Shown here piece by piece: positions 6,452-63,054 of a DNA stretch of 64,000 nucleotides. Under the pieces are notes generated by a model. It was not told the DNA's origin, did not search any database, and worked only from the letters and a program-made list of their open reading frames with translations. Source of the stretch: a virus (taxonomy: Duplodnaviria; Caudoviricetes); IMG/VR virus record IMGVR_UViG_2974625740_000001, positions 19,220 to 83,219 of that record; one strand, given 5' to 3'. The position numbers and the translations under genes were made by a program. Position 1 is the stretch's first letter, and the number at the start of each line of letters is the position of its first letter.

Positions 6452-6481
6452 TAGCGCAGTACGCAAGTCCTGTGGTACACT
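6452..6481 (+). promoter_or_regulatory. dyad promoter (leaderless) for the XRE gene
   Basis: TAGCGC-N18-TACACT with CGCAAG half-site; predicted +1 falls on ATG 6488. Confidence 0.65.
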
Positions 6482-6487
6482 TTCGGT

Positions 6488-6793
6488 ATGGACAGCAACC
6501 AGGACACCGTTACGCTTGAAGCGTTCGCAGACCGGGTCGGATGCCACTTCACGACGGCGTCCCGACTGCGGTCCGGCGACAGGATGCCCAGCAAGGAACT
6601 GCTCGGGCGCATCGTTGAGGCTTACGGCCTCGACAAGGAATCGGCTTTCGACGTCTTCACCCAGGGCGACCCGACCCAGTTCGGGCGGTACCTGCGTGAG
6701 GAGGTCTTCAAGTCCGAGGCCGAGTCGGGGCCGGAGTCTCAGGAGACAGGGAACCGAACACATGACACAGACGCTCGCATCTCCGCCGCGTGA
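6488..6793 (+). CDS. XRE-family HTH transcriptional regulator
   Basis: TLEAFADRVGCHFTTASRLRSGDRMPSKELLGRI helix-turn-helix. Confidence 0.85.
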   Translation: MDSNQDTVTLEAFADRVGCHFTTASRLRSGDRMPSKELLGRIVEAYGLDKESAFDVFTQGDPTQFGRYLREEVFKSEAESGPESQETGNRTHDTDARISAA

Positions 6794-7064
6794 GACCGCT
6801 CACGCGGCGCGGGTCCAGCAGGTCGACCACCACATGGCGGATCTGGTCGCCCGGCTGAAGGGCCCCGAGTTCGAGCTGGTCCACCCGGCGCGGTGGCGGC
6901 ATCTCGACACGGGTCACCACGTGGAGACCGGATACTCTTACGGCGAGGGCCGTGTCCGTGTTTTCCTGGGTGGAGGTCGGACGGCAGATCACCTGTTCGT
7001 CCTCTCCGGTCGGGAAGACGACATGGACGCGTTCAACGCGCTGTTCCCTGTCTCCAGCGAGTAA
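6762..7064 (+). CDS. hypothetical protein
   Basis: MTQTLASPP...; phage-like codon usage; hairpin follows. Confidence 0.6.
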   Translation: MTQTLASPPRETAHAARVQQVDHHMADLVARLKGPEFELVHPARWRHLDTGHHVETGYSYGEGRVRVFLGGGRTADHLFVLSGREDDMDAFNALFPVSSE

Positions 7065-7087
7065 CGCAAGGTCCGCCGACCCCCCGT

Positions 7088-7132
7088 CGACGCCCCCACT
7101 CCGCAGCCAGCAGGGTGGGGGCGTCGGCGTGT
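7088..7132 (+). terminator. stem-loop terminator
   Basis: cgacgccccca / tgggggcgtcg, followed by gcgtgt. Confidence 0.6.
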
Positions 7133-7158
7133 CCGGCGCAACCGTCCTTATCCGGGAC

Positions 7159-7188
7159 TTGCGCTGTAGACAATCACCATGCTGTACT
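7159..7188 (+). promoter_or_regulatory. dyad promoter
   Basis: TTGCGC-N18-TGTACT, TTG-N9-CAA. Confidence 0.55.
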
Positions 7189-7222
7189 GGCGGGGACGAG
7201 ACAGGAACAAGGAGGTTCCACC

Positions 7223-7537
7223 ATGAGGCACAAGGGACAGTACACCACCCCCCAGCTCAAGCGGCTGGCGCTTCAGGGCAACGACGTGATCCCCGTCTTC
7301 GGCCGTCCGGTCGAGATGGTGACCCTCCGCCACCGCCCCCGCACCAAGTTCGACCCCAAGCCCTGGGTCTGGGGCACCGACGGCCTGCGCTACAGCGCGT
7401 GGGAACTGACCGTCGAGCCGCACAAGGCGACCGAGGGCGAGCTGGCCGAACTGCGTCACGAGGTCGAGGACACGACCGACTTCATCCGTGCCAACATGGT
7501 CTGTGCGGTCGGCGCACCGCAGGGGGTGGCGGCGTGA
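7223..7537 (+). CDS. hypothetical protein
   Basis: RBS AAGGAGG; MRHKGQYTT... Confidence 0.7.
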   Translation: MRHKGQYTTPQLKRLALQGNDVIPVFGRPVEMVTLRHRPRTKFDPKPWVWGTDGLRYSAWELTVEPHKATEGELAELRHEVEDTTDFIRANMVCAVGAPQGVAA

Positions 7538-7701
7538 CCTGTCGATGTTCGGTCGACAACCTGCGTCGGCTGTGCGAACCGTGTCGGGTTCGAGCCGGTC
7601 GGCCCTCGTGCGCCTGGTGCCTCGGCCGTGGGTTCCGCGTGTTGAACATGCGTTGGACCCGCTGCGACCACACACCGGCTCGGGTGGAGGTGGTGGCATG
7701 A
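7534..7701 (+). CDS. small Cys-rich (Zn-finger-like) protein
   Basis: GTGA overlap; CRC..CEPC..CAWC..C. Confidence 0.55.
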   Translation: MTCRCSVDNLRRLCEPCRVRAGRPSCAWCLGRGFRVLNMRWTRCDHTPARVEVVA

Positions 7702-7784
7702 ACCGCATCAGCGTGGCGTGGGCCCTCACCCTCTCGTACGGCGCTCTCGGCGTCGCGGCGTGCGTCGTGAAATTCCTCGGCTGA
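7698..7784 (+). CDS. 28-aa membrane peptide
   Basis: ATGA overlap, RBS GGAGG, single TM helix. Confidence 0.5.
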   Translation: MNRISVAWALTLSYGALGVAACVVKFLG

Positions 7785-7797
7785 CGCCTTCGAAGAC

Positions 7798-7840
7798 CAC
7801 TGACCCCCCGGGTTCCAAGGCCCTGCCCGGGGGGTCAGTG
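7798..7840 (+). terminator. stem-loop terminator
   Basis: cactgaccccccggg / cccggggggtcagtg. Confidence 0.65.
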
Positions 7841-7860
7841 CTGTGCCCGAACGAGGGTAC

Positions 7861-7890
7861 TTGCGCACCCCGCAAGTCGTGTGGTTTAAT
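7861..7890 (+). promoter_or_regulatory. dyad promoter, class I
   Basis: ACTTGCG-N5-CGCAAGT perfect dyad; TG-n-TTTAAT. Confidence 0.75.
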
Positions 7891-7919
7891 TGTACCAACG
7901 ACGAACGAGGGAGCAGGAA

Positions 7920-8924: not shown

Positions 8925-9607
8925 ACAAGGAACAGGCAGCGTGGGGTCGGCTCTTGGAGTCGGCCCCACGCGGGCGTTACGAGCACGCCCGTTCGTGGCA
9001 GAAGCGAGAAAAGCGACGTGCGAACTTCCGGGCCAAGGTGTCGCGCCAGCCCGGCGGCTGCTGGCTATGGGTCGGGCAGTCGCCGGTCCGGAGCGGCAAG
9101 CCGTACCCGCTGTGGGGCGTCAAGATCAAGGGCCGGAGTCAGCAGCGGTCGGCGTTCGTGTGGATGATCGGCGAGTTCTTCCCCGAGCTGGCCGCCACCC
9201 TCCCCCATCGCACGCAGCCCTCATGCGGTGAGTCGACGTGCATCGCGCCGACGCACCGTGTCAACGGCATGTTGACCAAGAACGTCATCACTCCCGAGCA
9301 GGCTATCGAGCTGTTCAGCTTGAAGGGCCACGCGGACTCGCAGGAGGTGGCGGAGCGCTTTGGCATCAGCCGCAACCAGGTGTTGTCGATATGGCGTGGT
9401 CGGAACTGGGGGAACGTGACCGGAGCAGTCAACCAGACGCGCCAGCGCAAGGTCACGCCGCCGGACATCGTGGACGCCATCAAGGATCGCCACGGTACGG
9501 CCAGCAGCCGGGCAGTGGCGGCTGAGTTCAACGTGAGTTACAAGACCGTGCTGCGCATCTGGAACGACGAACACCGTGGCTTGTCCCGGGAGCAAGCACC
9601 ATGCTAG
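8921..9607 (+). CDS. HNH endonuclease-like protein with two C-terminal HTH domains
   Basis: GCWLWVG...H..PSCGESTCIAPTH; QEVAERFGISRNQV and RAVAAEFNVSYKTV HTH motifs. Confidence 0.7.
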   Translation: MNKEQAAWGRLLESAPRGRYEHARSWQKREKRRANFRAKVSRQPGGCWLWVGQSPVRSGKPYPLWGVKIKGRSQQRSAFVWMIGEFFPELAATLPHRTQPSCGESTCIAPTHRVNGMLTKNVITPEQAIELFSLKGHADSQEVAERFGISRNQVLSIWRGRNWGNVTGAVNQTRQRKVTPPDIVDAIKDRHGTASSRAVAAEFNVSYKTVLRIWNDEHRGLSREQAPC

Positions 9608-9610
9608 GCT
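9581..9610 (+). promoter_or_regulatory. dyad promoter, class II
   Basis: TTGTCC-N18-TAGGCT, TTG-N9-CAA. Confidence 0.6.
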
Positions 9611-9643
9611 GGCGGTCCGTACGAGACACAGGAGGTCGGCACC

Positions 9644-11466: not shown

Positions 11467-11545
11467 ACGTTGAGGCATCTGAGGCCCGGACCACCACCCG
11501 CGTGGCACCGGGCCTCAGATGTATCGGGTGCCACATACACAGGGC

Positions 11546-11575
11546 TTGTCTCTGGCGCAAGCCACATGGTACAAT
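11546..11575 (+). promoter_or_regulatory. dyad promoter, class II
   Basis: TTGTCT-N18-TACAAT, TTG-N9-CAA. Confidence 0.7.
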
Positions 11576-11611
11576 CTTGTACGATGTGGTAGCAACCAGG
11601 GAGGTGGCGCA

Positions 11612-11881: not shown

Positions 11882-11886
11882 GGGGC

Positions 11887-11916
11887 TTGCGTGGGGGACA
11901 ACCCCCATGCTACGAT
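11887..11916 (+). promoter_or_regulatory. dyad promoter, class II (tRNA/terD locus)
   Basis: TTGCGT-N18-TACGAT, TTG-N9-CAA. Confidence 0.7.
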
Positions 11917-14217: not shown

Positions 14218-14249
14218 ACCGCCAAGGTTCACAGGCGCAAACACCCTAC

Positions 14250-14279
14250 TTGCGCCAGGAACAACCCCCATGGTAGGGT
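14250..14279 (+). promoter_or_regulatory. dyad promoter, class II
   Basis: TTGCGC-N18-TAGGGT, TTG-N9-CAA. Confidence 0.65.
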
Positions 14280-17982: not shown

Positions 17983-17984
17983 GT

Positions 17985-18014
17985 TTGTACCCCCGACAAG
18001 CCCTGTGATATGCT
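17985..18014 (+). promoter_or_regulatory. dyad promoter, class II
   Basis: TTGTAC-N18-TATGCT, TTG-N9-CAA. Confidence 0.6.
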
Positions 18015-18482: not shown

Positions 18483-18529
18483 TTGCCGTGGGCGACCCAA
18501 CGGCGGGGGTGGCGGCGTGCCCCCGGTAG

Positions 18530-18559
18530 TTGCGCCCGGGGCAAATCCCGTGTTTTACT
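18530..18559 (+). promoter_or_regulatory. dyad promoter, class I
   Basis: TTGCGC-N18-TTTACT, TTG-N9-CAA. Confidence 0.7.
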
Positions 18560-22279: not shown

Positions 22280-22285
22280 CTGTGC

Positions 22286-22315
22286 TTGCGCCGCGCGCAA
22301 CTACCATGCTAGGAT
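22286..22315 (+). promoter_or_regulatory. dyad promoter, class II (polymerase operon)
   Basis: TTGCGC-N18-TAGGAT, TTG-N9-CAA. Confidence 0.75.
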
Positions 22316-22374
22316 GGTGGCACACCACGCCGGGCCGTTAGTCCCCGGCGGAAGACGAGAATAAGGAGGGCCCC

Positions 22375-26873: not shown

Positions 26874-26969
26874 GCCCCCCGGGCCTCGCGAGAGGCTGCC
26901 GGAGACCCCACAGAAGCCCTCGGGCCCACCAACACGGTGACCCGGGGGCTTCGCCATGTCGACTACCAG

Positions 26970-26999
26970 TTGCCCCGGCCGCAAACCCCGTGATACCCT
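26970..26999 (+). promoter_or_regulatory. dyad promoter, class II
   Basis: TTGCCC-N18-TACCCT, TTG-N9-CAA. Confidence 0.6.
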
Positions 27000-29529: not shown

Positions 29530-29538
29530 CCCCGGTAC

Positions 29539-29568
29539 TTGCGCACCAGACAACGGTCATGATACGGT
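29539..29568 (+). promoter_or_regulatory. dyad promoter, class II
   Basis: TTGCGC-N18-TACGGT, TTG-N9-CAA. Confidence 0.65.
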
Positions 29569-29948: not shown

Positions 29949-29996
29949 GCCGCCGGGGGCGGTCCCGATGCACCACGTCGGGACCGCCCCCGCTGC

Positions 29997-30026
29997 TTGC
30001 GCGGGCAGCAACTACCGTGCTACGAT
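29997..30026 (+). promoter_or_regulatory. dyad promoter, class II (purZ operon)
   Basis: TTGCGC-N18-TACGAT, TTG-N9-CAA. Confidence 0.75.
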
Positions 30027-30580: not shown

Positions 30581-31696
30581 GTGGGTGGCAAGCTTCTGGT
30601 AGTGGCCGGAGCCCAGTACGGTTCCGAGGCCAAGGGACACGTCGCTGACCAGCTCAGCCGACCGGCCGTCGCGAGTGACAACGTGGTCGTCATGCGGGTG
30701 GCGGGACCGAACGCGGGTCACACCGTGTACGGCCTGTGCCCCAACGACTGCACCCCGGACGACTCGCACATGTCCGGCGAGAACTGGATCGGGCACCCGT
30801 GGCGGCTGCGCACCGTGCCGGTGGGGGCCGTCAGCAACCCCGATGCCGACCTGGTCATCGCCGCCGGTTCCGAGATCGACTACAACGTGCTCATGTCGGA
30901 GGTCGTCGCGCTAGACGCCGCCGGATACAAGGTCAGCCAGCGGCTGGTCATCGACACCCAAGCGACGCTGCTCGAACCGCGTCACATCCAGGAGGAGGTC
31001 GACGCCAAGATCCAGGAGCGTCTCGGCTCCACCGCCAAGGGCATCGGGGCGGCTCGCGCCGACCGCATCTGGCGACTGGCCAAGACCTGGGGTGACCACA
31101 TCCAAGACGAGGGCCGGATCGAGTCCGCCGAGTTCGTGCGGGGTCGGCTGGCCGACGGCGCTACGGTCGTGATCGAGGGGACCCAGGGGTTCGGCCTCGG
31201 GCTGCACGCGGGTCACTACCCCCAGTGCACCTCGTCCGACTGCCGCGCGATCGACTTCCTGTCCATGGCTGGCCTCAGCCCGTGGATGCGCGAGGTCGAC
31301 GAGTTCGGCGTCTGGCTGGCCGCCCGGGTCCGCCCGATCCGCGTGGCGGGCAACTCCGGCCCGATGAAGAACGAGACCACCTGGCAGGACCTGCGTCTGC
31401 CGGAGGAGTACACGACCGTGACCAAGAAGGTCCGGCGCGTGGGCGAGTGGGACGGCGAACTCGTCGCCCGCGCCGTGATCGCCAACGGCGGTGCTCCGGC
31501 CGTCCGGGTCGCGCTGACCATGGTCGACAGCATCTTCGACGAGATCCGCAACGCCGAGGGCATGTTCGACGACGTCGACTGGACGCACGAGGTTGCACCC
31601 CCGCTGCCCAAGATCGTGACCAACATCGAGCGCGAGATCGGGGCCCCGATCCGCATGATCACCACCTCGCCGACCACTGCCCTCTGGAGGCCGTGA
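30581..31696 (+). CDS. purZ: PurZ/PurZ0-type 2-amino-deoxyadenylosuccinate synthetase
   Basis: PurA fold (GPNAGHT, GSTAKGIGAA, EGTQG, TTVTKKVRRVG); Ser15 in GAQYGSEAKG replaces the PurA catalytic Asp; TMVD at the PurA TKLD site. Confidence 0.85.
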   Translation: MGGKLLVVAGAQYGSEAKGHVADQLSRPAVASDNVVVMRVAGPNAGHTVYGLCPNDCTPDDSHMSGENWIGHPWRLRTVPVGAVSNPDADLVIAAGSEIDYNVLMSEVVALDAAGYKVSQRLVIDTQATLLEPRHIQEEVDAKIQERLGSTAKGIGAARADRIWRLAKTWGDHIQDEGRIESAEFVRGRLADGATVVIEGTQGFGLGLHAGHYPQCTSSDCRAIDFLSMAGLSPWMREVDEFGVWLAARVRPIRVAGNSGPMKNETTWQDLRLPEEYTTVTKKVRRVGEWDGELVARAVIANGGAPAVRVALTMVDSIFDEIRNAEGMFDDVDWTHEVAPPLPKIVTNIEREIGAPIRMITTSPTTALWRP

Positions 31697-33955: not shown

Positions 33956-34001
33956 CGCTGTCTTCCGCCACCACGCGCCACCCCTGTGCGCTCTTGTGCC
34001 G

Positions 34002-34031
34002 TTGCGGAGGGCGCAATTACCGTGGTAGTAC
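34002..34031 (+). promoter_or_regulatory. dyad promoter (weak -10)
   Basis: TTGCGG-N18-TAGTAC, TTG-N9-CAA. Confidence 0.45.
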
Positions 34032-34057: not shown

Positions 34058-34249
34058 GTGGTTCTGAACGTTGACGACTGGGTGGAGACAAAAAACGGCA
34101 ACATCGCGTTGGTGGTCGCTCGCAAGAGCCGACGCGTGGTCACCCTGTACACGATCGAAGATCACGAGCTGCACGAGGACGTCAGCGTCGACGTGATCAG
34201 CGGGTGTTTTCCGAACGTGTACAGGTTGCGCAACGCGGCCCCCGTATGA
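34058..34249 (+). CDS. hypothetical protein
   Basis: GTG with RBS GGAGG. Confidence 0.55.
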   Translation: MVLNVDDWVETKNGNIALVVARKSRRVVTLYTIEDHELHEDVSVDVISGCFPNVYRLRNAAPV

Positions 34250-34255
34250 TTTAAT
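34226..34255 (+). promoter_or_regulatory. promoter, class I -10
   Basis: TTGCGC-N18-TTTAAT; CAA half-site absent. Confidence 0.55.
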
Positions 34256-34336
34256 CGCCGATCGGATCCCGCTTGTCCCAACGGCAACAGGGTGGTACAC
34301 TTGTGCCCAGTTGCAAGAGACCTGGAGGGCTCCCCG

Positions 34337-34878: not shown

Positions 34879-34958
34879 CCGCCACCCCCCCCTGACGCCC
34901 CCTCACCCAAATTCCCGCGCTCCGGTCCGGGTGAGGGGGCTCACGCTTGCCCGGGTGA

Positions 34959-34988
34959 TTGCGCTGCGAGCAAGTCCCATGGTAGGAT
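34959..34988 (+). promoter_or_regulatory. dyad promoter, class II (purB operon)
   Basis: TTGCGC-N18-TAGGAT, TTG-N9-CAA. Confidence 0.75.
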
Positions 34989-37856: not shown

Positions 37857-37885
37857 ATTAAATCACGGCCTTGTCGACCGCGCAA
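37857..37885 (-). promoter_or_regulatory. dyad promoter, class I
   Basis: TTGCGC-N17-TTTAAT-TGAATTA. Confidence 0.75.
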
Positions 37886-37921
37886 GTCCCCTCCGTCGTA
37901 ACGTTATCGCTGGGGCTGGAC

Positions 37922-37950
37922 TTGCGCCCGGAGCAAGCCTGTGATTTACT
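37922..37950 (+). promoter_or_regulatory. dyad promoter, class I
   Basis: TTGCGC-N17-TTTACT. Confidence 0.75.
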
Positions 37951-39123: not shown

Positions 39124-39152
39124 ATTAAATCACAACCTTGCGTTCAACGCAA
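39124..39152 (-). promoter_or_regulatory. dyad promoter, class I
   Basis: TTGCGT-N17-TTTAAT. Confidence 0.75.
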
Positions 39153-39189
39153 GTCAAAGCGGGTGATCTGCGTCACATGACCTGGCTAC

Positions 39190-39218
39190 TTGCGCTGCGG
39201 ACAAGCCGGTGCTTTACT
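39190..39218 (+). promoter_or_regulatory. dyad promoter, class I
   Basis: TTGCGC-N17-TTTACT. Confidence 0.75.
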
Positions 39219-39548: not shown

Positions 39549-39875
39549 ATGGACGACGCCACCCGCCACCGCTACTACGTCGAGTCGACATACGCCCTGG
39601 GCATGCTGGCCACGGACCCGGTCGGCCTGCTGACCGAACGCGGCATCAAGGGCCAGCGATCCAACCGCGACGACTGCATCGTGAGGATGCTCAACGCGGA
39701 GGTCCCGCCCCCGGAGGGTTACCGGTGGCTGTCGAACAAGGACCACGTCCGGCTGCAGCTCACCGCTGACCTGGAGTCGGTGCTGATCGTCTTCACGCCG
39801 GACCCGCTGCGTGACTTCGGCGAGAAGTTTGACAAGGGACGGTACCCGGAGCTGCTCGACGAAGAACTTGCGTAA
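39549..39875 (+). CDS. hypothetical protein
   Basis: RBS GGGAG. Confidence 0.6.
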   Translation: MDDATRHRYYVESTYALGMLATDPVGLLTERGIKGQRSNRDDCIVRMLNAEVPPPEGYRWLSNKDHVRLQLTADLESVLIVFTPDPLRDFGEKFDKGRYPELLDEELA

Positions 39876-39897
39876 CCCGCAAGCCCTGTGCTTTAAT
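39868..39897 (+). promoter_or_regulatory. dyad promoter, class I
   Basis: TTGCGT-N18-TTTAAT. Confidence 0.75.
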
Positions 39898-40454: not shown

Positions 40455-40464
40455 TGTCCGGTAC

Positions 40465-40494
40465 TTGCGCGGTGAGCAAGCCGTGTGATTTACT
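40465..40494 (+). promoter_or_regulatory. dyad promoter, class I
   Basis: TTGCGC-N18-TTTACT. Confidence 0.75.
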
Positions 40495-40531: not shown

Positions 40532-40888
40532 ATGCGCAAGGCAACCGCGAACACGCTGGTTCACCTGCTGGGGGCCATGGCCGCCGGTCGCTCCGTGACC
40601 ATTCGGTACGTCAAGGAAAACGGCGAGGTCAGCCGACGCCGGATCGACATCTACTCGGTCCAGGTCACCAAGGCCGGTAACGTCACGCTCACCACGTGGG
40701 ACCATCGGGACCAGGAGCTGACCACGTTCCGCCTGGACCGCATCACGCATTACACCCTGCACCGGTCGGCGAAGCTCACCGCTTACGCGCGGCCGGTCGT
40801 CCCCTGCGACGACCCGATCATCGACGCCGACACCGACGAGGTTGTCGGGTTCAGCGCGTGGGACGACGCTTACAAGCTGACCGCCTGA
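40532..40888 (+). CDS. stand-alone WYL-domain protein
   Basis: AMAAGRSVTIRY....SRRRIDIY......LTTWDHRDQELTTFRLDRI. Confidence 0.8.
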   Translation: MRKATANTLVHLLGAMAAGRSVTIRYVKENGEVSRRRIDIYSVQVTKAGNVTLTTWDHRDQELTTFRLDRITHYTLHRSAKLTAYARPVVPCDDPIIDADTDEVVGFSAWDDAYKLTA

Positions 40889-41885: not shown

Positions 41886-41953
41886 CTTGCGCCGAGCGCG
41901 CGGGTGTGGTTAGATTGCTCCTGCGCCGCTTCCACTTACCGGACCCAGGGGAC

Positions 41954-41983
41954 TTGACCCCGGAGCAAGGGCCATGGTACAAT
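41954..41983 (+). promoter_or_regulatory. dyad promoter, class II
   Basis: TTGACC-N18-TACAAT, TTG-N9-CAA. Confidence 0.75.
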
Positions 41984-42029
41984 GGAACCACGACAGAGCA
42001 CGAAGTCCCCTTTTCTGGAGGTAAGCATC

Positions 42030-42701: not shown

Positions 42702-42793
42702 CCCGACCTGCGACGCGCGTAACAGCCCGACCCCGGGCCCTCTGCGGAGGGTGCCGGGGTCGACGCATGTCTGAGGTCAGCCGACCCGGGTAC

Positions 42794-42823
42794 TTGCGCC
42801 AGCCGCAAGTGCCATGATAAGAT
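42794..42823 (+). promoter_or_regulatory. dyad promoter, class II
   Basis: ACTTGCG-N5-CGCAAGT; TAAGAT. Confidence 0.75.
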
Positions 42824-42853
42824 GGTGGTACACCGAGGGAAGGAACCGCACCA

Positions 42854-43198: not shown

Positions 43199-43714
43199 AT
43201 GAACCGCAAGACATCGGCCGCAGTCGCCGGAACCGCCACCGCCCTGGTGCTCGGTCTCGTCGGCTGCGGTGGCTCGGGCGAACCGAGTACCGTGGACGGC
43301 CTGCGCGACGACTTCAAGACCAAGGCCGCTGTCGCCGAGGTCGCGCACTTCGAGACCAAGCCGAAGACCAAGCGCGTCTGCGCCGCGAAGAACAACAAGG
43401 GGACGTGCACCCGGTACGAGGACCGACCCAACGGCACGAAGCGCGTCAAGGTCGTCGACAAGCCGGGCAAGCCCGCGCTGTACTGCGTCGAGCTGGACGA
43501 CGTCAACGGCTCCAAGAGCGACGACGACGCCTGGTACACGGTCACGCTGGCGACGTACGCCAAGGTGTCCGGCCAGGACGAGGGCAGCAAGGTCAAGAAC
43601 ATGACGTTCCTGCACCCCGGTTGCGGCTCCGACAAGCAGCGGCCCCCGCACCCGGTAACCCGGGTCGGGGGCCGCTGCTTGTCGGAGCCGCAACCGGGGT
43701 GGTACCCTTGGTAG
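43199..43714 (+). CDS. lipoprotein
   Basis: MNRK...LVLGLVG-C lipobox; the 3' end runs through a long palindrome. Confidence 0.7.
   Translation: MNRKTSAAVAGTATALVLGLVGCGGSGEPSTVDGLRDDFKTKAAVAEVAHFETKPKTKRVCAAKNNKGTCTRYEDRPNGTKRVKVVDKPGKPALYCVELDDVNGSKSDDDAWYTVTLATYAKVSGQDEGSKVKNMTFLHPGCGSDKQRPPHPVTRVGGRCLSEPQPGWYPW
43613..43701. repeat. perfect 35-bp inverted repeat
   Basis: caccccggttgcggctccgacaagcagcggccccc at 43613-43647 and its exact reverse complement at 43667-43701. Confidence 0.95.
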
Positions 43715-45616: not shown

Positions 45617-45646
45617 ATTAAAGCACACGGCTTGCCCAACGCGCAA
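45617..45646 (-). promoter_or_regulatory. dyad promoter, class I
   Basis: TTGCGC-N18-TTTAAT. Confidence 0.75.
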
Positions 45647-45690
45647 GTACACCTCGGGCCCCGACCTTTCGGCCAGGGCCCGAGGGCGTG

Positions 45691-45960
45691 TCACCAGTGG
45701 AGGCCGAAGCCCCGGTGCCGGTAGTTGTCGATGCGCTCCTGTGCGTCGCGCTGGTTCCGGCGTGCCAGCCACGCGATGGCCAGCGCGATTCCGGCGGTCG
45801 CCCCACCGGGGGCCGACAGGGCGACCCCGAGCAGGCTCCCGGTCAGCTTGCCGACCAGGACCCCCAGGGCGACGAGGGCGAACCCGCCCCACATCACCCC
45901 GAGGGCGATCTTCACGTCGCGGGTGGCGCGGTTCAGGTCGCGCCGGTAGCTCTCGATCAC
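45691..45960 (-). CDS. membrane protein
   Basis: 2 TM; RBS AGGAGG. Confidence 0.6.
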   Translation of the reverse strand: MIESYRRDLNRATRDVKIALGVMWGGFALVALGVLVGKLTGSLLGVALSAPGGATAGIALAIAWLARRNQRDAQERIDNYRHRGFGLHW

Positions 45961-45962
45961 GG

Positions 45963-46139
45963 TCAGACCTCCTCGCCCGCTGCACGAGCCGCGATGCGCG
46001 CCAGCCGCGCCTTCTGCTCCTCCTTGCGCTTCGCGATCGCCGCGCGCTCCTCGTCGTTCAGCTCGCGGTTCTCGACCTTCACGACCGGGCTCGCGCCCAT
46101 GTTGTTGAGAGTGCGGCCGAGGTGGCGGGGCTTGCGCAT
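45963..46139 (-). CDS. small basic/coiled-coil protein
   Basis: MRKPRHLG...; RBS GAAGGAG. Confidence 0.65.
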   Translation of the reverse strand: MRKPRHLGRTLNNMGASPVVKVENRELNDEERAAIAKRKEEQKARLARIAARAAGEEV

Positions 46140-46188
46140 TTCGGGCTCCTTCCGGGGGGCCGGTCCGTCCGGCCCCCGCTCTAATTCC

Positions 46189-46217
46189 ATTAAATCACGA
46201 GCTTGCCCGGGGCGCAA
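46189..46217 (-). promoter_or_regulatory. dyad promoter, class I
   Basis: TTGCGC-N17-TTTAAT. Confidence 0.75.
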
Positions 46218-46234
46218 TGCCCCGGGCGGGTCGG

Positions 46235-46435
46235 TCAGTGGCGGTTGCGAGCCTCGATGTACGCGGCGAACTCGTCGTCGGTCGCGGACTCCAGCAGCTC
46301 GGCGCGGTCCTCCTGCGCCTTGCGGATGGTGTTCCGGGCGGTGACCCGGGTGATGTCGGCCTGGGCGTTGCGCAGGTTCCGGCGGGCCTGGCGGCTGACG
46401 TGGTCCAGCTCCAGCAGCTTCTCGACGACGGTCAT
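46235..46435 (-). CDS. small helical hypothetical protein
   Basis: RBS GAGGAG; own promoter. Confidence 0.65.
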   Translation of the reverse strand: MTVVEKLLELDHVSRQARRNLRNAQADITRVTARNTIRKAQEDRAELLESATDDEFAAYIEARNRH

Positions 46436-46478
46436 TTCGGGCTCCTCTCGACGGGACCGTGTGCCCCGTTCTGATTCT

Positions 46479-46507
46479 ATTAAAGCACAACCTTGCCCGA
46501 CGCGCAA
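46479..46507 (-). promoter_or_regulatory. dyad promoter, class I
   Basis: TTGCGC-N17-TTTAAT. Confidence 0.75.
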
Positions 46508-46520
46508 ATCCCCAACCCAG

Positions 46521-46536: not shown

Positions 46537-46567
46537 CCTCGAGAGTTTACCGTCGCACCATGCCCAC

Positions 46568-46597
46568 TTGTCGAAGGAGCAATCCCCATGATAAGAT
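46568..46597 (+). promoter_or_regulatory. dyad promoter, class II (transfer module)
   Basis: TTGTCG-N18-TAAGAT, TTG-N9-CAA. Confidence 0.7.
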
Positions 46598-53080: not shown

Positions 53081-53109
53081 ATTAAATCATAGCCTTGCCA
53101 ACCGCGCAA
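53081..53109 (-). promoter_or_regulatory. dyad promoter, class I
   Basis: TTGCGC-N17-TTTAAT. Confidence 0.75.
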
Positions 53110-53178
53110 GTACCCAACCCGAAACACGCCGACGCCCTCCGCCGTGGGGGTGGCGGAGGGCGTCGGCTGGCGGTGCGG

Positions 53179-53614: not shown

Positions 53615-53644
53615 AGTAAAGCAGAGGGCTTGTCCGGCGCGCAA
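53615..53644 (-). promoter_or_regulatory. dyad promoter, class I
   Basis: TTGCGC-N18-TTTACT. Confidence 0.75.
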
Positions 53645-53658
53645 GTCCCCTCACCGAC

Positions 53659-53687
53659 TTGCGCGCCGGACAAGGCCGTGATTTACT
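53659..53687 (+). promoter_or_regulatory. dyad promoter, class I
   Basis: TTGCGC-N17-TTTACT; back-to-back with the minus-strand promoter. Confidence 0.75.
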
Positions 53688-54039: not shown

Positions 54040-54048
54040 GGGCCTGAC

Positions 54049-54539: not shown

Positions 54540-54552
54540 TTGCCAAAGGTAC

Positions 54553-54582
54553 TTGCGCGTTGAGCAAGCGGTGTGGTTTAAT
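54553..54582 (+). promoter_or_regulatory. dyad promoter, class I
   Basis: TTGCGC-N18-TTTAAT. Confidence 0.75.
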
Positions 54583-55088: not shown

Positions 55089-55155
55089 GGCCGACCCCGG
55101 CGGGGGGCGACGAGCCCCCCGCCCAACGTGGCACAGGTCACATCGCACAGGGTAC

Positions 55156-55184
55156 TTGCGCAGCCCGCAAGGGCATGATTTAAT
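55156..55184 (+). promoter_or_regulatory. dyad promoter, class I
   Basis: TTGCGC-N17-TTTAAT. Confidence 0.75.
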
Positions 55185-55974: not shown

Positions 55975-55995
55975 CAGCCAAGGAACCCGAGGGAC

Positions 55996-56025
55996 TTGCG
56001 CCAACCGCAAGCGACGTGATTTAAT
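55996..56025 (+). promoter_or_regulatory. dyad promoter, class I
   Basis: TTGCGC-N18-TTTAAT. Confidence 0.75.
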
Positions 56026-56793: not shown

Positions 56794-56995
56794 TCGGCCG
56801 GACAGGGCCCCGGGAACCCCGAGAGGGGGGCACCGGGGCCCTTCTGTGTGTCCGGCGGCACCAGAGCACCCCGGCGGCACGAGAGGCCGTCCGAGACCCC
56901 ACGGAAGGCCGCGCCAGGTGTCACCGCGCAACCTCGTTGCCGTGGGCTGCTCGTGGGGCGGTGGCGGCTTGTGCGCACGAGGTGCGCCAACCCAC

Positions 56996-57025
56996 TTGCG
57001 CTCAACGTGGTCAACATGGTTTAAT
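56996..57025 (+). promoter_or_regulatory. promoter, class I
   Basis: TTGCGC-N18-TTTAAT. Confidence 0.7.
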
Positions 57026-57259: not shown

Positions 57260-57309
57260 GCCGACCGGCCCCCGTCCGAAAGGACGGGGGCCGACCCGTG
57301 CGAGGGGAC

Positions 57310-57339
57310 TTGCGCTCAACGCAAATCGTGTGATTTAAT
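57310..57339 (+). promoter_or_regulatory. dyad promoter, class I
   Basis: TTGCGC-N18-TTTAAT. Confidence 0.75.
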
Positions 57340-57383
57340 GGAATTACGCAAGGGGGAAACGCCCCCAGCGGAAGGAGCCCAAG

Positions 57384-57674: not shown

Positions 57675-57723
57675 CGGCCCCAGGCCCCTTCCGAAAGGAG
57701 GGGGCCGACGCGTTCCCGGGAAC

Positions 57724-57752
57724 TTGCGCGAGACGCAAGGTTGTGATTTAAT
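57724..57752 (+). promoter_or_regulatory. dyad promoter, class I
   Basis: TTGCGC-N17-TTTAAT. Confidence 0.75.
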
Positions 57753-57796
57753 TGAAATTAGAGGGGGCAGGGAGCCCCCGCCGGAAGGAGCCCAAA

Positions 57797-58159
57797 ATGG
57801 CGAACCGCGAATTCAGCGACCACGGTCGGCCGGACCTCTTCGACGAGGACGGCGAGTTCATCGGGTCGGCTTCTGACTACGACTTCTGGACCTGCCGCAA
57901 CTGCGGCGAGAGCAACCAGGGGATCAGCCTCCAGGACGCCCAGGAGAACCACGACCTGTGGGGCGACTGCGAGGAGTTCGAGGTCATGGCCCAGATCGAG
58001 GACGACGTGATTGACCCCGAGGGCAAGGCCGCGACCGTGACCCAGATCGGCGAGGGCGGCGAGGTCGCGCTGGTTCGCTACGAGGACGGCACCGAGGGCG
58101 AGTGGGACCTGGTCGACCTCCTGGTGAAGCCGGAGGAGGACGCCGACGAGGCGTTCTGA
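57797..58159 (+). CDS. very acidic protein with a CxxC knuckle
   Basis: RBS GAAGGAG; WTCRNCG; D/E-rich. Confidence 0.7.
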   Translation: MANREFSDHGRPDLFDEDGEFIGSASDYDFWTCRNCGESNQGISLQDAQENHDLWGDCEEFEVMAQIEDDVIDPEGKAATVTQIGEGGEVALVRYEDGTEGEWDLVDLLVKPEEDADEAF

Positions 58160-58189
58160 CCCCCAGCGAGGTTGCCCCGGACGCGGGAC

Positions 58190-58218
58190 TTGCGTCCGGG
58201 GCAAAGCTGTGATTTAAT
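58190..58218 (+). promoter_or_regulatory. dyad promoter, class I
   Basis: TTGCGT-N17-TTTAAT. Confidence 0.75.
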
Positions 58219-58263
58219 TGAATTACAGCAGGGGGACGGGCCCCCGGGACGAAGGAGCACAAA

Positions 58264-58536: not shown

Positions 58537-58555
58537 AGGAACCGCGCCCCGGGAC

Positions 58556-58585
58556 TTGCGCCCGGGGCAAGCGGTGTGGTTTAAT
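58556..58585 (+). promoter_or_regulatory. dyad promoter, class I
   Basis: TTGCGC-N18-TTTAAT. Confidence 0.75.
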
Positions 58586-58632
58586 TGAATTACACGGGGG
58601 CGCACCGCCCCCGCTGACCGAGGAGCCAGCAC

Positions 58633-59055
58633 ATGACCGACACCACGCCCGCAACGCCCGAGTGGCTGAAGTTCATCAACTTCGAGGGCCGCATCACCGG
58701 GCCCACCGCGCAGGTCATCAAGGACGTCGCCGAGTCCCGGGGGCTCACCCCCGAGCAGGTCCTGACCGAGGCCCTGTGCGCCGGTCTCAACGTCATCGGG
58801 TGGGGCAACCCGGGCCGGTCCGAGGTCGACGCCCAGATCACCCCCTGGACGCCGAACGAGGGGTGCGGCGGGTTCCACGTCGTGACCGTGGTCGCCGACG
58901 GGTACGGGTTCATCGTGGCCGAGGACCAGAACGGCAAGGAGCGCGCCCGGGTCGCGTGCCAGGACCCGGACGAGGCCGACGCGAACCCCGGCAAGGACCT
59001 GGCCGACCTGATGGCCAAGTTCACCGAGGTCGTGGAGGCCGAGCGCAACGGCTGA
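58633..59055 (+). CDS. hypothetical protein
   Basis: RBS GAGGAG. Confidence 0.7.
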   Translation: MTDTTPATPEWLKFINFEGRITGPTAQVIKDVAESRGLTPEQVLTEALCAGLNVIGWGNPGRSEVDAQITPWTPNEGCGGFHVVTVVADGYGFIVAEDQNGKERARVACQDPDEADANPGKDLADLMAKFTEVVEAERNG

Positions 59056-59110
59056 CCCGCCCAACCCGACGCCCCCGGTCGCCAGCCGGGGGCGTCGGCG
59101 TGTCGGGAAC

Positions 59111-59140
59111 TTGCGCCGACCGCAAGCCGTGTGGTTTAAT
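59111..59140 (+). promoter_or_regulatory. dyad promoter, class I
   Basis: TTGCGC-N18-TTTAAT. Confidence 0.75.
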
Positions 59141-59185
59141 TGAATTAGAGCAGGGGGACACGCCCCCTGCGGAACGGAGCCTGCC

Positions 59186-59437
59186 GTGTTCACCCACTTC
59201 GAATTCCCGGACATCGACGAGACCGACTCGGAGCTGGTCGCCGACGCGCTGCTGGCCGCCGAGGGCGTTGGGCCGATCTTCGGCTTCCGCTGTGACCCTC
59301 GGTTCGGCCCGTTCCTGGTGACCGTGGTCGAGGGCAACTGGGTGGCCCTGGCGACCGGCGAGTCGCCGACCGCCGAGGACGTCAAGGCGTACGTGTTGAA
59401 GCGGCTCGCCGAGGTGCGCGCCGAGCGCAACGCCTGA
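59186..59437 (+). CDS. hypothetical protein
   Basis: GTG with RBS GGAG. Confidence 0.65.
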   Translation: MFTHFEFPDIDETDSELVADALLAAEGVGPIFGFRCDPRFGPFLVTVVEGNWVALATGESPTAEDVKAYVLKRLAEVRAERNA

Positions 59438-59484
59438 CCGAACCCCGACCCGGGTGGTGTGACACGCGCCACCCGGGTCGGGAC

Positions 59485-59513
59485 TTGCGCGACGGACAAG
59501 CCCGTGATTTAAT
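59485..59513 (+). promoter_or_regulatory. dyad promoter, class I
   Basis: TTGCGC-N17-TTTAAT. Confidence 0.75.
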
Positions 59514-59560
59514 AGAATTACGCAAGGGGGCACCGGGCCCCCGGCGGGGAGGAGCCAGAA

Positions 59561-60436: not shown

Positions 60437-60597
60437 CACGCCGCCACCGCCCCCAAGGCCGCCCACGGCCACGATTGACGCGGTGACGACCCACGAGGGC
60501 CCCGGGGACAGCCTCCCGGGGCCCTCGGGTGCGTCCGGGCCCGGGGCCAGCCGAGAGGCCGCGAGAGCCCCCACGACAGCCCTCCGGAGCGGGTCAG

Positions 60598-60962
60598 CCG
60601 GGGGGTAACGGCAGGGGGTACAGGGGGGTACGCTGCAGGCCGTTACCCCCACTGTTACCCCTCTGACCTTTGTAACTGTGGGTGACGAAATTTAGCAGGG
60701 GTAACGGCGCTCCAGGGTGGGGGGTAACGGCCCCGAAATGCCCTGCTGTTACCCCTGCTGTTACCCCTCGGCCAAAGTGCAATTACCGACCAGTAACCCC
60801 CTCTGACCGGCAGATTTCTACTTTTTCTACATACAATTTTAATAGGGGGGTAACGGGGGTAACGGCCCCGTACCCTCCGTGGCCCAGGTGGGGGGCCATG
60901 ATTACGCTCCGTGGTCGTCCCCCCGTAGCTGCCCCGCGCACCCCGGTGGCCGTTACCCCCCC
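60598..60962. repeat. origin-like iteron array 2 (homologous to 17625-17982)
   Basis: Same order of GGGTAAC/GTTACCC copies; identical 20-nt and 26-nt blocks flanking an AT-rich core. Confidence 0.8.
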
Positions 60963-60988
60963 TCGTGCGGGCCCTCCAGCCTTATGAC

Positions 60989-61018
60989 TTGCGCTAACCC
61001 GCTGACCTGTGATTTAAT
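60989..61018 (+). promoter_or_regulatory. promoter, class I
   Basis: TTGCGC-N18-TTTAAT. Confidence 0.7.
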
Positions 61019-61064
61019 TGAATTAGCGAGGACGACCGGGCCTCACGGAGCAGGGGAGACCGAC

Positions 61065-61178
61065 ATGGACTGGAACAGCGACAAGGCGTACCAGCAGCCG
61101 GGCGAGACCGAAGAGGAGTACCTCAGCCGGATCGAGGCGGCGACGGACCGCGACGCCTGGTACAGCCAGGACGCGTAA
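61065..61178 (+). CDS. 37-aa acidic peptide
   Basis: RBS GGGGAG; MDWNSDKAYQQPGETEEEYL... Confidence 0.6.
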   Translation: MDWNSDKAYQQPGETEEEYLSRIEAATDRDAWYSQDA

Positions 61179-61196
61179 GGTCCCCCGGGGGCGGGG

Positions 61197-61226
61197 TTGC
61201 GTTAACCCGCCCCCCTGTGGTTTAAT
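61197..61226 (+). promoter_or_regulatory. promoter, class I
   Basis: TTGCGT-N18-TTTAAT. Confidence 0.7.
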
Positions 61227-61276
61227 TGCATTACGAGGTCGGGGGGTCCGGCCTCAAGCGAGACAGGGAGCACCTC

Positions 61277-61456
61277 ATGAACTTCACCCTCTTCACCGTG
61301 GAGCGCAACGGCTCGGTCTACGAGGTCAAGGACGGCGAGGGCAACACGCTGGACGCCTGCCCGGTGCCCAACCCCGAGACCCCCGAGGCGTACAAGGCCG
61401 CGATCACCGACATGGTCGCCCACGTCATTGAAGTGCAGTCGCAGTTCCTCGGCTGA
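61277..61456 (+). CDS. hypothetical protein
   Basis: RBS GGGAG. Confidence 0.65.
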   Translation: MNFTLFTVERNGSVYEVKDGEGNTLDACPVPNPETPEAYKAAITDMVAHVIEVQSQFLG

Positions 61457-61564
61457 CCAGCCCACCGGCCCCCACAGCCCGCAAGGGAGGTGGGGGCCGA
61501 CCCATGTGTCAATCGTCAATTGTGCGCAGCGAGGACCGGGGGAGGTGGCGGTGTGCCAACCTAC

Positions 61565-61593
61565 TTGCGCCCCGAGCAAGCCGGTGCTTTAAT
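61565..61593 (+). promoter_or_regulatory. dyad promoter, class I
   Basis: TTGCGC-N17-TTTAAT. Confidence 0.75.
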
Positions 61594-61625
61594 GGAACCA
61601 ACGAACTGAACAGGGGAGGCACAAC

Positions 61626-61838
61626 ATGGCACACCTGGACCTGCGCGCAGCAGCCCGAGCCCAGCACACCGAGCAGAAGGCCGGACACGCGGCGGCAACG
61701 CTGGAGACGACCCGGATGCACATGGAGGCGGACGCGGCCGAGGAACGCGGCGAGTACTACACCGCCGACCTGACCCGACGCGCAGCCGACGAGCAGCAGG
61801 CCGCCGCAAACCGGCGCTGGCGACCGCTGAGCAACTGA
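61626..61838 (+). CDS. small helical hypothetical protein
   Basis: RBS GGAGG. Confidence 0.65.
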   Translation: MAHLDLRAAARAQHTEQKAGHAAATLETTRMHMEADAAEERGEYYTADLTRRAADEQQAAANRRWRPLSN

Positions 61839-61999
61839 GACCCCACGGCCCCCGTCCCGGGTGGGGACGGGGGCCGAGCCATGCCCACGACGGCCCGGGA
61901 CGGTACCACGGAGCGCACGAGACCCCGTCCCGGGCCCAGAGGACCGGCGGCCAGCCGAGAGGCCCCGGAAGACCCCAGAGAAGGGCGCGGCCCCGGTAA

Positions 62000-62029
62000 T
62001 TGCGTAAGGAGCACACACCATGCTTTACT
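62000..62029 (+). promoter_or_regulatory. promoter, class I
   Basis: TTGCGT-N18-TTTACT. Confidence 0.6.
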
Positions 62030-62085
62030 TGTCCCAGACGCAAGGCCGCCGGGCAGGCCCCGGTCGGCCGGAAGGAGCCAGCACA

Positions 62086-62412
62086 ATGGGTGGACACCCC
62101 GTCACACCGCGCGTTCTCGCGCTGCTCAACACGAAGTTCAACGGCAAGGCCGTCACGCTCGACCAGCTCGTCGCCGGAACGGGCCTCGACGGCAAGCAGA
62201 TCCAGTCGGCCATGTCGCGGCTGGTCGCCGACACCAACATCGAGTGCGTGGTCGTGAACCGGGGCCAGATGTGGAAGTACGGCGGACCGGCCAGCAACGA
62301 CGCCGAGATCAGCGACACGCTGTTCGAGGTCGTCGGCACGGCGGCCAAGGGCGGCGACACGATCGTCCGGGGCGACCACACCGGCAAGCTCTACAAGGTG
62401 GTGGCGCTGTGA
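62086..62412 (+). CDS. winged-helix-like DNA-binding protein
   Basis: VTLDQLVAGTGLDGKQIQSAMSRL...VNRGQMWKY. Confidence 0.6.
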   Translation: MGGHPVTPRVLALLNTKFNGKAVTLDQLVAGTGLDGKQIQSAMSRLVADTNIECVVVNRGQMWKYGGPASNDAEISDTLFEVVGTAAKGGDTIVRGDHTGKLYKVVAL

Positions 62413-62807
62413 AGGGCGAACCGATGGAGGCGCAGTTCTCTTGCGTCTACCGCACGCACGGGGGCGACCGCGAAATCCGGCTGACGGTCGGGTCCGAGGA
62501 CCTGGCCGCGTGGCAGCGCGGGGAAGGCCACATTCAGGACATCTTCCCGTACTTGACCCCGGCGGAGCGCGAGATGTTCCAGTCGGGCATCTGCGGGGAC
62601 TGCTGGAACGTGGTCTTCCCGCCCGAGGAGGAAGAGGAGCCGCCCACGGTCGACTGGTACGACCTGCCGACCTGGGTCAAGGGCAGCTACCGCACCAACG
62701 CCGAGATGGACACGCTCAAGTCGTACACCTGGCGCAAGACCGGTGAAGACGAGTTCCAGGCGTACGACCTGCAAGGCCGGTACGTGGGCCTATGGGCCCG
62801 CGAGTGA
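62409..62807 (+). CDS. hypothetical phage protein
   Basis: HIQDIFPYLTPAEREMFQSGICGDCW. Confidence 0.65.
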   Translation: MKGEPMEAQFSCVYRTHGGDREIRLTVGSEDLAAWQRGEGHIQDIFPYLTPAEREMFQSGICGDCWNVVFPPEEEEEPPTVDWYDLPTWVKGSYRTNAEMDTLKSYTWRKTGEDEFQAYDLQGRYVGLWARE

Positions 62808-62986
62808 GCTGGGAGGAACTGCCCCAGGAGGCCCGGGACGCCATCACGGAGCGCTTCCCGGGCCTCGCTGGTCCCTCGGGGGCGGGGGTGCTCTGGAAGG
62901 CCGCCGGAGACCCCACGACGAGCTTCACGGGCTTCGAGGGCGGAAGGTTGATCGCGGTCGTGTCAATCGTCAACCCGTTGCCGTAG
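62804..62986 (+). CDS. hypothetical protein
   Basis: GTGA overlap. Confidence 0.5.
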   Translation: MSWEELPQEARDAITERFPGLAGPSGAGVLWKAAGDPTTSFTGFEGGRLIAVVSIVNPLP

Positions 62987-63024
62987 GCGCACCGGGGGCA
63001 GTGGCGGCCAGCGCGCAATGGGGA

Positions 63025-63054
63025 TTGCGCCCGAGACAAAGGGTGTGTTTTACT
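63025..63054 (+). promoter_or_regulatory. dyad promoter, class I
   Basis: TTGCGC-N18-TTTACT, TTG-N9-CAA. Confidence 0.7.

Follow-up and report, generated by a model that had tools for sequence, protein, structure and literature searches.

A 17-bp dyad tied to the -35 element of most non-structural promoters in a Hiyaavirus phage genome is a likely site for one dimeric factor

Why does almost every promoter in the non-structural part of a phage genome carry the same inverted repeat on its -35 element, and what might bind it? We addressed this question in the right 64 kb of the 83,219-bp phage record IMGVR_UViG_2974625740_000001 (bases 19,220-83,219, hereafter the window, whose numbering is used below unless genome bases are named), in which an earlier note had described about 45 promoters sharing a TTG-N9-CAA dyad. 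The closest named relative is Streptomyces phage Spocter (97-98% identity), followed by Keanu (~84%) and Galactica (~80%); all three belong to the genus Hiyaavirus and have S. lividans and S. mirabilis as hosts. In these genomes, the left 25 kb holds the terminase-to-tail and lysis genes, and the rest holds replication and nucleotide-metabolism genes together with ~60 small unknown genes. Gene calls for the window were the Spocter calls carried over by tblastn. We found no paper on promoters of Hiyaavirus, Keanu, Galactica, or Spocter. Our sequence comparisons suggest that a 17-bp dyad is a likely site for one dimeric factor on most non-structural promoters of this phage.

A dyad is fixed to the -35 element of about 43 promoters

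The window contains 48 copies of TTG-N9-CAA, where 5.2 are expected, and 15 copies of the longer CTTGC-N7-GCAAG, where 0.04 are expected. To avoid circularity, we searched for promoters independently of the CAA, requiring TTG, then 20 or 21 nt, and then TGnT[A/T]nnnT. This search identified 46 promoters with 17- or 18-nt spacers, and the CAA was found at +13 to +15 from the first T of TTG in 40 of them (14 with a 17-nt spacer and 26 with an 18-nt spacer). The one-base difference in spacer length always fell between the CAA and the TG of the extended -10 element. Because the offset of the CAA from the TTG is constant at both spacer lengths, the CAA belongs to the -35 element rather than to the -10 element. 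A relaxed scan contributed further sites at 6452, 7159, and 34002, giving a total of ~43 dyad promoters among ~49 promoters, so that ~43 of the 48 TTG-N9-CAA dyads in the window are placed on a -35 element at a fixed distance from an extended -10 element. Almost all sites were intergenic and oriented toward the next gene, usually ~40 nt before its start codon. A pattern scan of the full record detected no dyad promoters in genome bases 1-27,000, the structural and lysis arm.

These results bear out the number of promoters reported in the earlier note, its placement of the CAA 9 nt after the TTG at both spacer lengths, and the perfect ACTTGCG-N5-CGCAAGT copies that it reported at 7859 and 42792, both of which are present. 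Its statement that nearly every transcription unit starts in this way holds for most non-structural promoters but not for six or seven dyad-less promoters or for genome bases 1-27,000. Two details needed correction: the distance between GCAAG and the TG, given as 1 nt, is actually 4-5 nt, and the -10 elements fall into two classes.

A frequency matrix of the sites gave the consensus ggKAC-TTG-C-G-C-N5-R-CAA-G. Across 40 sites, TTG and CAA were invariant, C(0) (33 of 40) mirrored G(16) (27 of 40), and Y(4) (C in 33 and T in 6) mirrored R(12) (G in 30 and A in 10). The central 5 nt of the dyad carried no information, and the center of symmetry lay 8 nt after the first T. The 17-bp element CTTGY-N7-RCAAG is made up of two 5-bp half sites, CTTGY and RCAAG, with centers 12 bp apart, and thus has the symmetric half sites and free center of a dyad operator. 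Inner dyad positions paired no more often than column composition predicts, and this lack of covariation indicates that selection is not for an RNA or DNA hairpin. With a stem of only 5 bp in addition, we rejected a hairpin or terminator reading of the palindrome.

The -35/dyad module was common to two classes of -10 element. Class A (30 sites) reads TGnTTTAAT or TGnTTTACT followed by nGAATTA and has small unknown genes downstream, on both strands. Class B (15 sites) reads TGnTAnnnT, mainly with an 18-nt spacer, and has replication and nucleotide genes downstream. All 46 sites have the -35 TTGnnn and the 17 ± 1-nt spacer of promoters read by HrdB, a group 1 sigma factor of the sigma-70 family. 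The TAnnnT form of the -10 element, with A at -11, fits the 15 class B sites but not the 30 class A sites.

The dyad is conserved as a unit apart from the promoter core

The strict pattern was counted 38 times in Spocter, 37 times in Keanu, and 40 times in Galactica, with none in the reversed control. In a footprint of 70 orthologous promoter pairs between the window and Keanu and Galactica, identity was high at positions 1-5 (0.96-1.0), 12-15 (0.86-0.94), and 16 (0.83) and low at positions 7-9 (0.46-0.56) and in the upstream flank (0.5-0.6). Metagenomic viral contigs with partial alignment at ~70% identity carried the same element on nearly all promoters, some of them with a canonical TAAAAT -10 element. 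A class A pattern scan of IMG/VR returned only single chance matches beyond three related contigs.

Six promoters, all on the + strand, lacked the CAA while keeping a TTGCGC or TTGCGT -35 element and an equivalent extended -10 element, which was TGnTTTAMT in five and TGG TTAGAT in one. These include class A promoters at 34225-34255 (GCC at +13, in tandem with a dyad promoter at 34272), 56995-57025 (TGG), 60988-61018 (GCT), and 61196-61226 (GCC), the TTAGAT promoter at 41886-41915 (CGC, in tandem with a dyad promoter at 41953), and the promoter of a winged-helix gene at 61999-62029, which has CAC for CAA. For each of the four that could be matched to an orthologue (41886, 56995, 61196, and 61999), the orthologue also lacked the CAA; those of 41886 were dyad-less in Keanu, Galactica, L011, and L021, those of 56995 in Keanu and Galactica, and that of 61196 in Keanu. 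Because the dyad-less promoters are conserved as such in relatives, the dyad appears to be dispensable for promoter function. As judged from their elements, promoters with the dyad show no sign of being weaker than those lacking it, which favors a repressor.

At the 61999 promoter, a full dyad has been displaced. A perfect CTTGTCCCAGACGCAAG (62028-62044, + strand) begins at the second-to-last base of the -10 element and spans the start region. The same layout precedes the orthologous genes of Spocter, Keanu, Galactica, and two metagenomic contigs (L070 and L034), whose proteins are 34-62% identical, and the -35 copy of the dyad was lost from the promoter of this gene in five of six relatives. 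The footprint, the dyad-less promoters, and the displaced dyad together support conservation of the dyad as a unit apart from the promoter. The earlier proposal of one dimeric factor for the whole non-structural genome therefore stands in part: a separate dyad is under selection on most promoters, but six or seven conserved exceptions escape it.

We also observed that the dyad-less type at 56995-57025, found again at Keanu 75110 and at Galactica 74802 and 57617, has a conserved spacer of its own, TTGCGC-nCAACG-TGG-nCAACA, which is a possible site for a different factor.

The element is nearly absent from presumed host genomes

Our host sample comprised 101 genomes (~860 Mb in total, 5.5-12 Mb each) of one genus, presumed to be Streptomyces through its member G055 (9.2 Mb in one contig), which we take to be Streptomyces on the basis of six exact copies of the 16S primer StrepB. 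The full pattern gave 43 matches in these 101 genomes against 27 for the reversed control, compared with 40 in the 83 kb of the phage. The earlier note had named a motif equally common in the host chromosome as the outcome that would undo its proposal; the element was instead ~10,000-fold less dense in the presumed hosts than in the phage. In five complete presumed Streptomyces genomes (40 Mb), the CAA stood at +13 in 0 of 34 TTGC-N19/20-TGnTWnnnT sites, CTTGCGC-N5-RCAAG occurred once against 13 occurrences in the reversed control, and no host regulon using this operator was visible. A motif scan of genome contigs gave only scattered single matches, none of them in named Streptomyces. A search starting from a TerD-like phage protein brought up no host genome. 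The promoter consensus of S. lividans is TGAC and TANNNT with an equivalent spacer and no spacer motif (PMC6742748). Given the near absence from presumed host genomes and the lack of the CAA at all 34 host-type sites, we rejected the dyad as an ordinary host promoter feature.

Candidate binding proteins

Of four binders proposed in the earlier note, two retained support. The first candidate is a 101-amino-acid XRE-family helix-turn-helix (HTH) protein (6488-6793, + strand), which matched Pfam HTH_3 with 28.2 bits against a gathering cut-off of 23 (E 2e-6). Its HTH segment, VGCHFTTASRL..G.R.P, was invariant in seven relatives with identity down to 56%. The gene is flanked by the lysis cassette on one side and the first dyad promoter on the other, and its own promoter (6451-6481, + strand) carries CTAGCGC-N5-GCAAG, with TAG rather than TTG in the left half, followed by TGG TACACT. 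This TAG variant was kept in Spocter, Keanu, Galactica, L200, L201, and L203. Because the ATG is only 6 nt after the -10 element, the XRE mRNA would be leaderless, and this start is conserved in relatives. The gene could also be transcribed by read-through from the late/lysis operon.

The second candidate is a 108-amino-acid protein (62086-62412, + strand) encoded behind the displaced dyad and predicted by AlphaFold2 to combine a winged helix with a small beta domain (pLDDT 75). Its best Foldseek matches were the MarR, ArsR, and Z-alpha winged helices, and we found 23 homologues. The recognition helix, however, differed among phages with the same dyad. Further information came from a distant relative, contig G184 (85 kb, 92% complete), in which an XRE homologue was present and no homologue of the winged-helix protein was detected. 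This contig held 10 dyads against 7 in the control, with 7 by the strict promoter pattern, and four of its dyads were found on successive promoters immediately after the XRE gene. From its sequence, G184 looks like an ordinary local repressor/operator state ancestral to the genome-wide state of this clade. Because the recognition helix of the 62086 protein varies and G184 lacks a detectable homologue, we ranked the XRE protein above the winged-helix protein, which remains the second candidate binder or a candidate second regulator in the circuit.

The other two proposed binders fared less well. The protein at 40532 is a bare WYL domain by Pfam in which no DNA-binding domain was detected, and open reading frame 63799 matched no Pfam family; we regard both as weak candidates. 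Among 30 small proteins searched against Pfam, only the HTH_3 protein (6488) and the WYL protein (40532) gave matches.

A phage-encoded repressor and its alternatives

We give somewhat better than even weight to the dyad being an operator at which a dimeric repressor, encoded by the phage, would compete with sigma for access to the -35 element. A phage dimeric HTH protein would bind both 5-bp half sites, at approximately -36 to -32 and -24 to -20, and the bound dimer would prevent HrdB, the principal sigma factor of the host, from placing its region 4 on the -35 element. Early and middle promoters of either -10 class, ~43 in all, would be shut down together, whether at a late stage of the lytic cycle or during silent carriage. 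The XRE protein would be the most probable binder, with a weakened site (CTAG instead of CTTG) in its own promoter. Since the left half of the dyad is the TTG read by sigma region 4 and the dimer would span approximately -36 to -20, binding should exclude polymerase and therefore repress. Overlap with the promoter core was seen in ~43 sites, where the left half is the -35 TTG, and in one site over the -10/+1 region. Dependence on an activator seems unlikely because a full -35 TTG, a spacer of optimal length, and an extended -10 element are found in dyad and dyad-less promoters alike. From these sequence features, we infer that a protein binds, which protein it is, whether it represses or activates, and where transcription starts.

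Several observations weigh against a repressor of this kind. The 12-bp distance between half-site centers is a little above the 10-11 bp usual for HTH dimers. In class A promoters, T replaces A at -11 (TTTAAT or TTTACT), and a helper factor may therefore be needed, which leaves room for an activator. The XRE gene is linked to the dyad only by co-occurrence, and fragments G180 and G181 lack an XRE gene, although they are only 31% and 51% complete. Another binder may hide among the unknown proteins, because only ~30 of ~100 were screened against Pfam. Finally, the annotations of Spocter, Keanu, and Galactica contain no integrase, partition protein, or repressor, so that a prophage state would be hypothetical in this phage group.

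The strongest competing explanation, which we consider rather unlikely, is that the dyad binds a phage activator or sigma-adapting factor, with the dyad-less promoters of the right end (56995, 60988, 61196, and 61999) being immediate-early and requiring no more than host polymerase. The winged-helix protein 62086, made from one of these promoters, would be this factor, turning on the ~43 promoters and shutting its own promoter via the displaced dyad. In favor of this explanation, the dyad-less promoters are concentrated toward the right end of the genome, where very small genes of unknown function follow them, and at the 62086 promoter a dyad over +1 has replaced the one at -35 in a conserved arrangement that is the classic layout of negative autoregulation. 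The predicted winged-helix fold of the protein and the class A -10 element, which may be weak alone for lack of the canonical A at -11, would also suit an activator. Yet the dyad promoters share their TTGCGC -35 element, 17/18-nt spacer, and extended -10 element with the dyad-less ones, and nothing marks them as activator-dependent; class B dyad promoters even match the S. lividans consensus TANNNT with an extended -10 element in addition (PMC6742748). Simultaneous binding of an activator and sigma is unlikely when the left half site is the TTG read by sigma region 4. As the factor, the 62086 protein would also have to recognize an identical dyad with a recognition helix that varies among phages, and G184 retains dyads without a detectable homologue of it.

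We consider it very unlikely that no separate protein is involved and that the CAA, together with the R and G next to it, serves as a spacer element that is recognized by host polymerase or its partners (sigma, RbpA/CarD, or the beta-prime zipper) or through DNA shape, its symmetry being incidental. Such a reading draws on the constant location of the element within the polymerase footprint, on the identity of its left half with the -35 element itself, and on the spacer elements known to be recognized by the polymerase core in E. coli. It does not explain why the position of the element is fixed to the -35 rather than to the -10 element or why both halves share the Y/R degeneracy. The CAA was absent from all 34 presumed host promoters, and the host consensus lacks a spacer motif (PMC6742748). 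Moreover, promoters of the same type persist in evolution without the element, and a full copy is conserved over the -10/+1 region of one gene, away from any -35 element. A host regulator that binds the dyad and ties early and middle phage genes to a host physiological signal seems to us highly improbable. The dyad is similar in form to the HspR HAIR (CTTGAGT-N7-ACTCAAG) and Rex (TTGTGAA-N4-TTCACAA) operators, but its gap between TTG and CAA is 9 nt, as opposed to 13 nt for HspR and 12 nt for Rex, and the single CTTGCGC-N5-RCAAG copy in 40 Mb of presumed hosts is below the reversed control. Scarcely credible is shared ancestry alone, in which one promoter cassette was copied repeatedly and the CAA hitchhiked without function. 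Class A units are indeed stereotyped over ~110 nt (promoter, AT-rich box, 5' hairpin, and ribosome site), as duplication would produce, but divergence has been free at the five central bases and in the flanks, whereas the CAA was kept in 40 copies, is 0.93-0.94 identical between species, and is retained in contigs that are only ~70% identical.

Returning to the phage-encoded repressor, a bolder form of it, which we hold to be distinctly unlikely, would make the XRE-dyad pair the immunity switch of a non-integrating phage that can stay silent inside the mycelium and spreads in a plasmid-like manner via its FtsK/TraB-like translocase. One repressor would close the ~43 lytic promoters, and the few dyad-less promoters of the right end would stay on. 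More boldly still, the uniform extended -10 element, the T at -11 of class A, and the dyad factor might all be adaptations to transcription of a diaminopurine (Z) genome.

Promoter map and associated features

The promoters mapped here were all predicted from sequence by the CAA-independent search, except those at 6451, 7158, and 34001, which came from the relaxed scan. On the + strand, the XRE gene is followed by dyad promoters at 7158-7188 (-10 TGTACT) and 7860-7890 (class A, 18-nt spacer, with a perfect dyad). Class B dyad promoters on this strand lie at 9580-9610 (18-nt spacer), 11545-11575, 11886-11916, 14249-14279, and 17984-18014, and a class A promoter at 18529-18559 heads the helicase operon. 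Farther to the right, class B promoters serve the DNA polymerase operon (22285-22315) and the PurA-like operon (29996-30026), with others at 26969-26999 and 29538-29568. The + strand then carries a dyad promoter with -10 TAGTAC at 34001-34031 and class B promoters at 34272-34301 (17-nt spacer), 34958-34988, 41953-41983, 42793-42823 (perfect 7-bp arms), 43678-43708, and 46567-46597, the last of which heads the FtsK/TraB-like operon.

Class A dyad promoters on the - strand were found at 37857-37886, 39124-39153, 45617-45647, 46189-46218, 46479-46508, 53081-53110, and 53615-53645. On the + strand, this class includes 37921-37950 (the divergent partner of 37886), 39189-39218, 39867-39897, 40464-40494 (heading the WYL-domain gene), and 53658-53687, which is divergent from 53645 and 15 nt away from it. 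The remaining + strand members lie at 54552-54582, 55155-55184, 55995-56025, 57309-57339, 57723-57752, 58189-58218, 58555-58585, 59110-59140, 59484-59513, and 61564-61593, and the last dyad promoter, also of class A, is at 63024-63054.

Class A units, such as those at 58579-58640, 59134-59190, and 57746-57800, have further features in common. Their -10 TTTAAT merges into TAATTnAATTA, a near-palindrome rich in AT that covers the start region. The predicted transcript has a G5-loop-C5 hairpin starting 4-6 nt from its 5' end, then GGAAGGAGCC, and then an ATG ~42 nt from the start. The sequence of these 5' hairpins varies among copies and the structure is kept. The near-palindrome and hairpin may represent a second operator plus a 5' stabilizer. 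The T at -11 of class A was conserved in four phages, and contig G182 reads TAAAAT in the same register. In class B, the extended -10 element often lies within a 14-bp near-palindrome, CCATGnTAnnATGG (e.g., 22303-22320, 41971-41990, and 42811-42830), whose flanking CC and GG are not accounted for by the -10 element itself.

Other observations concern individual loci. At 43621-43693, a GC-rich hairpin has a copy of the dyad (TTGCGGCTCCGACAA, at 43621-43635) on one side and, on the other, the exact reverse complement of that copy, which is the -35/dyad of the 43678 promoter. The whole makes one long inverted repeat in which a terminator has a 3' arm that doubles as the operator of the next promoter. 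The segment at 45637-46453 is missing from Spocter and holds two extra leftward class A dyad promoters (46218 and 46508), and promoter units therefore seem to mark the gain and loss of small-gene cassettes. A near-consensus, dyad-less TTGACG-18-TAAAAT promoter lies at 63630-63659, 340 nt from the right genome end, with two strong inverted repeats (63660-63760) downstream. It may be the late promoter, from which transcription would cross the joined genome ends to reach the terminase and structural genes, with termination controlled by an RNA element. The PurA-like protein (30581-31696) has 7vf6 as its nearest solved structure (E 1e-83), and most of the bacterial PurA entries listed are less close to it than the PurZ entries of phiVC8 and S-2L. 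A PurZ-like gene together with a phage PurB fits a possible diaminopurine genome and could bear on the universal extended -10 element.

Significance and relation to known systems

If the dyad is the operator of a phage repressor, early and middle transcription in an 83-kb phage would be governed almost entirely by one small protein and a 17-bp site. This would provide a handle on the temporal program of an unstudied Streptomyces phage genus, a way into whether apparently lytic phages have a silent state, and tightly switchable, host-orthogonal promoter/operator pairs for Streptomyces engineering. The genome contains natural controls, in that the same promoter occurs with and without the dyad and the dyad has in one case moved to +1. 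Comparison of G184, with only ~8 sites, located beside its XRE gene, and this clade, with ~43 sites, would show a local operator spreading genome-wide.

The closest precedent in outline may be the Streptomyces phage phiC31, for which Wilson, Ingham, Smith, and coworkers in the 1990s reportedly described a c repressor, ~18 17-bp conserved inverted repeats (CIRs), and a repeated early promoter family. Like the phage analyzed here, phiC31 is said to have many 17-bp inverted repeats over its early region, alongside a promoter family, with one phage protein for all of them. It reportedly differs in being an integrating, temperate phage with a large, multi-isoform repressor and early promoters that are not of the host sigma-70 type. 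The repeats also differ in sequence and number (~18 CIRs compared with ~43 copies here), and in our phage the left half is the -35 TTG.

Other promoter-linked systems fit less well. MerR-type operators are dyads centered in an over-long spacer of 19-20 nt, and we ruled this type out because the spacers here are 17/18 nt and the dyad center is 2 nt after the -35 hexamer rather than mid-spacer. T4 MotA promoters lack a -35 element and have an asymmetric box at -30 instead; the invariant -35 TTG and the symmetric site ruled out a MotA box or sigma appropriation, although AsiA and MotA homologues were not searched for. The HspR HAIR, the Rex ROP, and the TTGC-N6-TTGC direct repeats of lambda CII were ruled out on spacing or symmetry. 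The operators of lambdoid phages (lambda, 434, and P22) are dyads of 14-17 bp on the promoter core that bind Cro/CI-type HTH_3 dimers, arranged as 3+3 operators at two promoters. The arrangement in our phage is similar in that the operator overlaps the promoter core and the candidate repressor gene would be autoregulated through a weaker site, but it involves ~43 promoters rather than 3+3 operators at two.

Among actinobacteriophages, gp71 of L5 (cluster A mycobacteriophages) and the R4 repressor are small HTH proteins with dozens of sites genome-wide (PMC6550527, PMC10276819). R4-like Streptomyces phages encode their immunity repressor between the lysis and early regions, which is also the map position of the XRE gene at 6488 (PMC10276819). 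The sites of these repressors, termed stoperators, are asymmetric, 13-14 bp long, bound by monomers, orientation-dependent, and located mostly within or between genes, where they stop elongation (PMC6550527, PMC10276819). We ruled out a stoperator because the site described here is symmetric and lies on the promoter -35 element. Cluster O mycobacteriophages carry a 17-bp palindrome, TGTTCGGNNNCCGAACA, in >30 copies per genome, with invariant arms, a free center, and an unknown binder (PMC4351075). Thus, a many-copy 17-bp dyad with conserved arms and a free center has precedent in another actinobacteriophage group, but in cluster O the palindromes show no link to predicted SigA promoters, and one in three falls inside a gene (PMC4351075). 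By analogy with phiC31 CIRs, lambdoid operators, the cluster O palindrome, and more loosely stoperators, the logic that we propose for the dyad is familiar, and its scale is unusually large.

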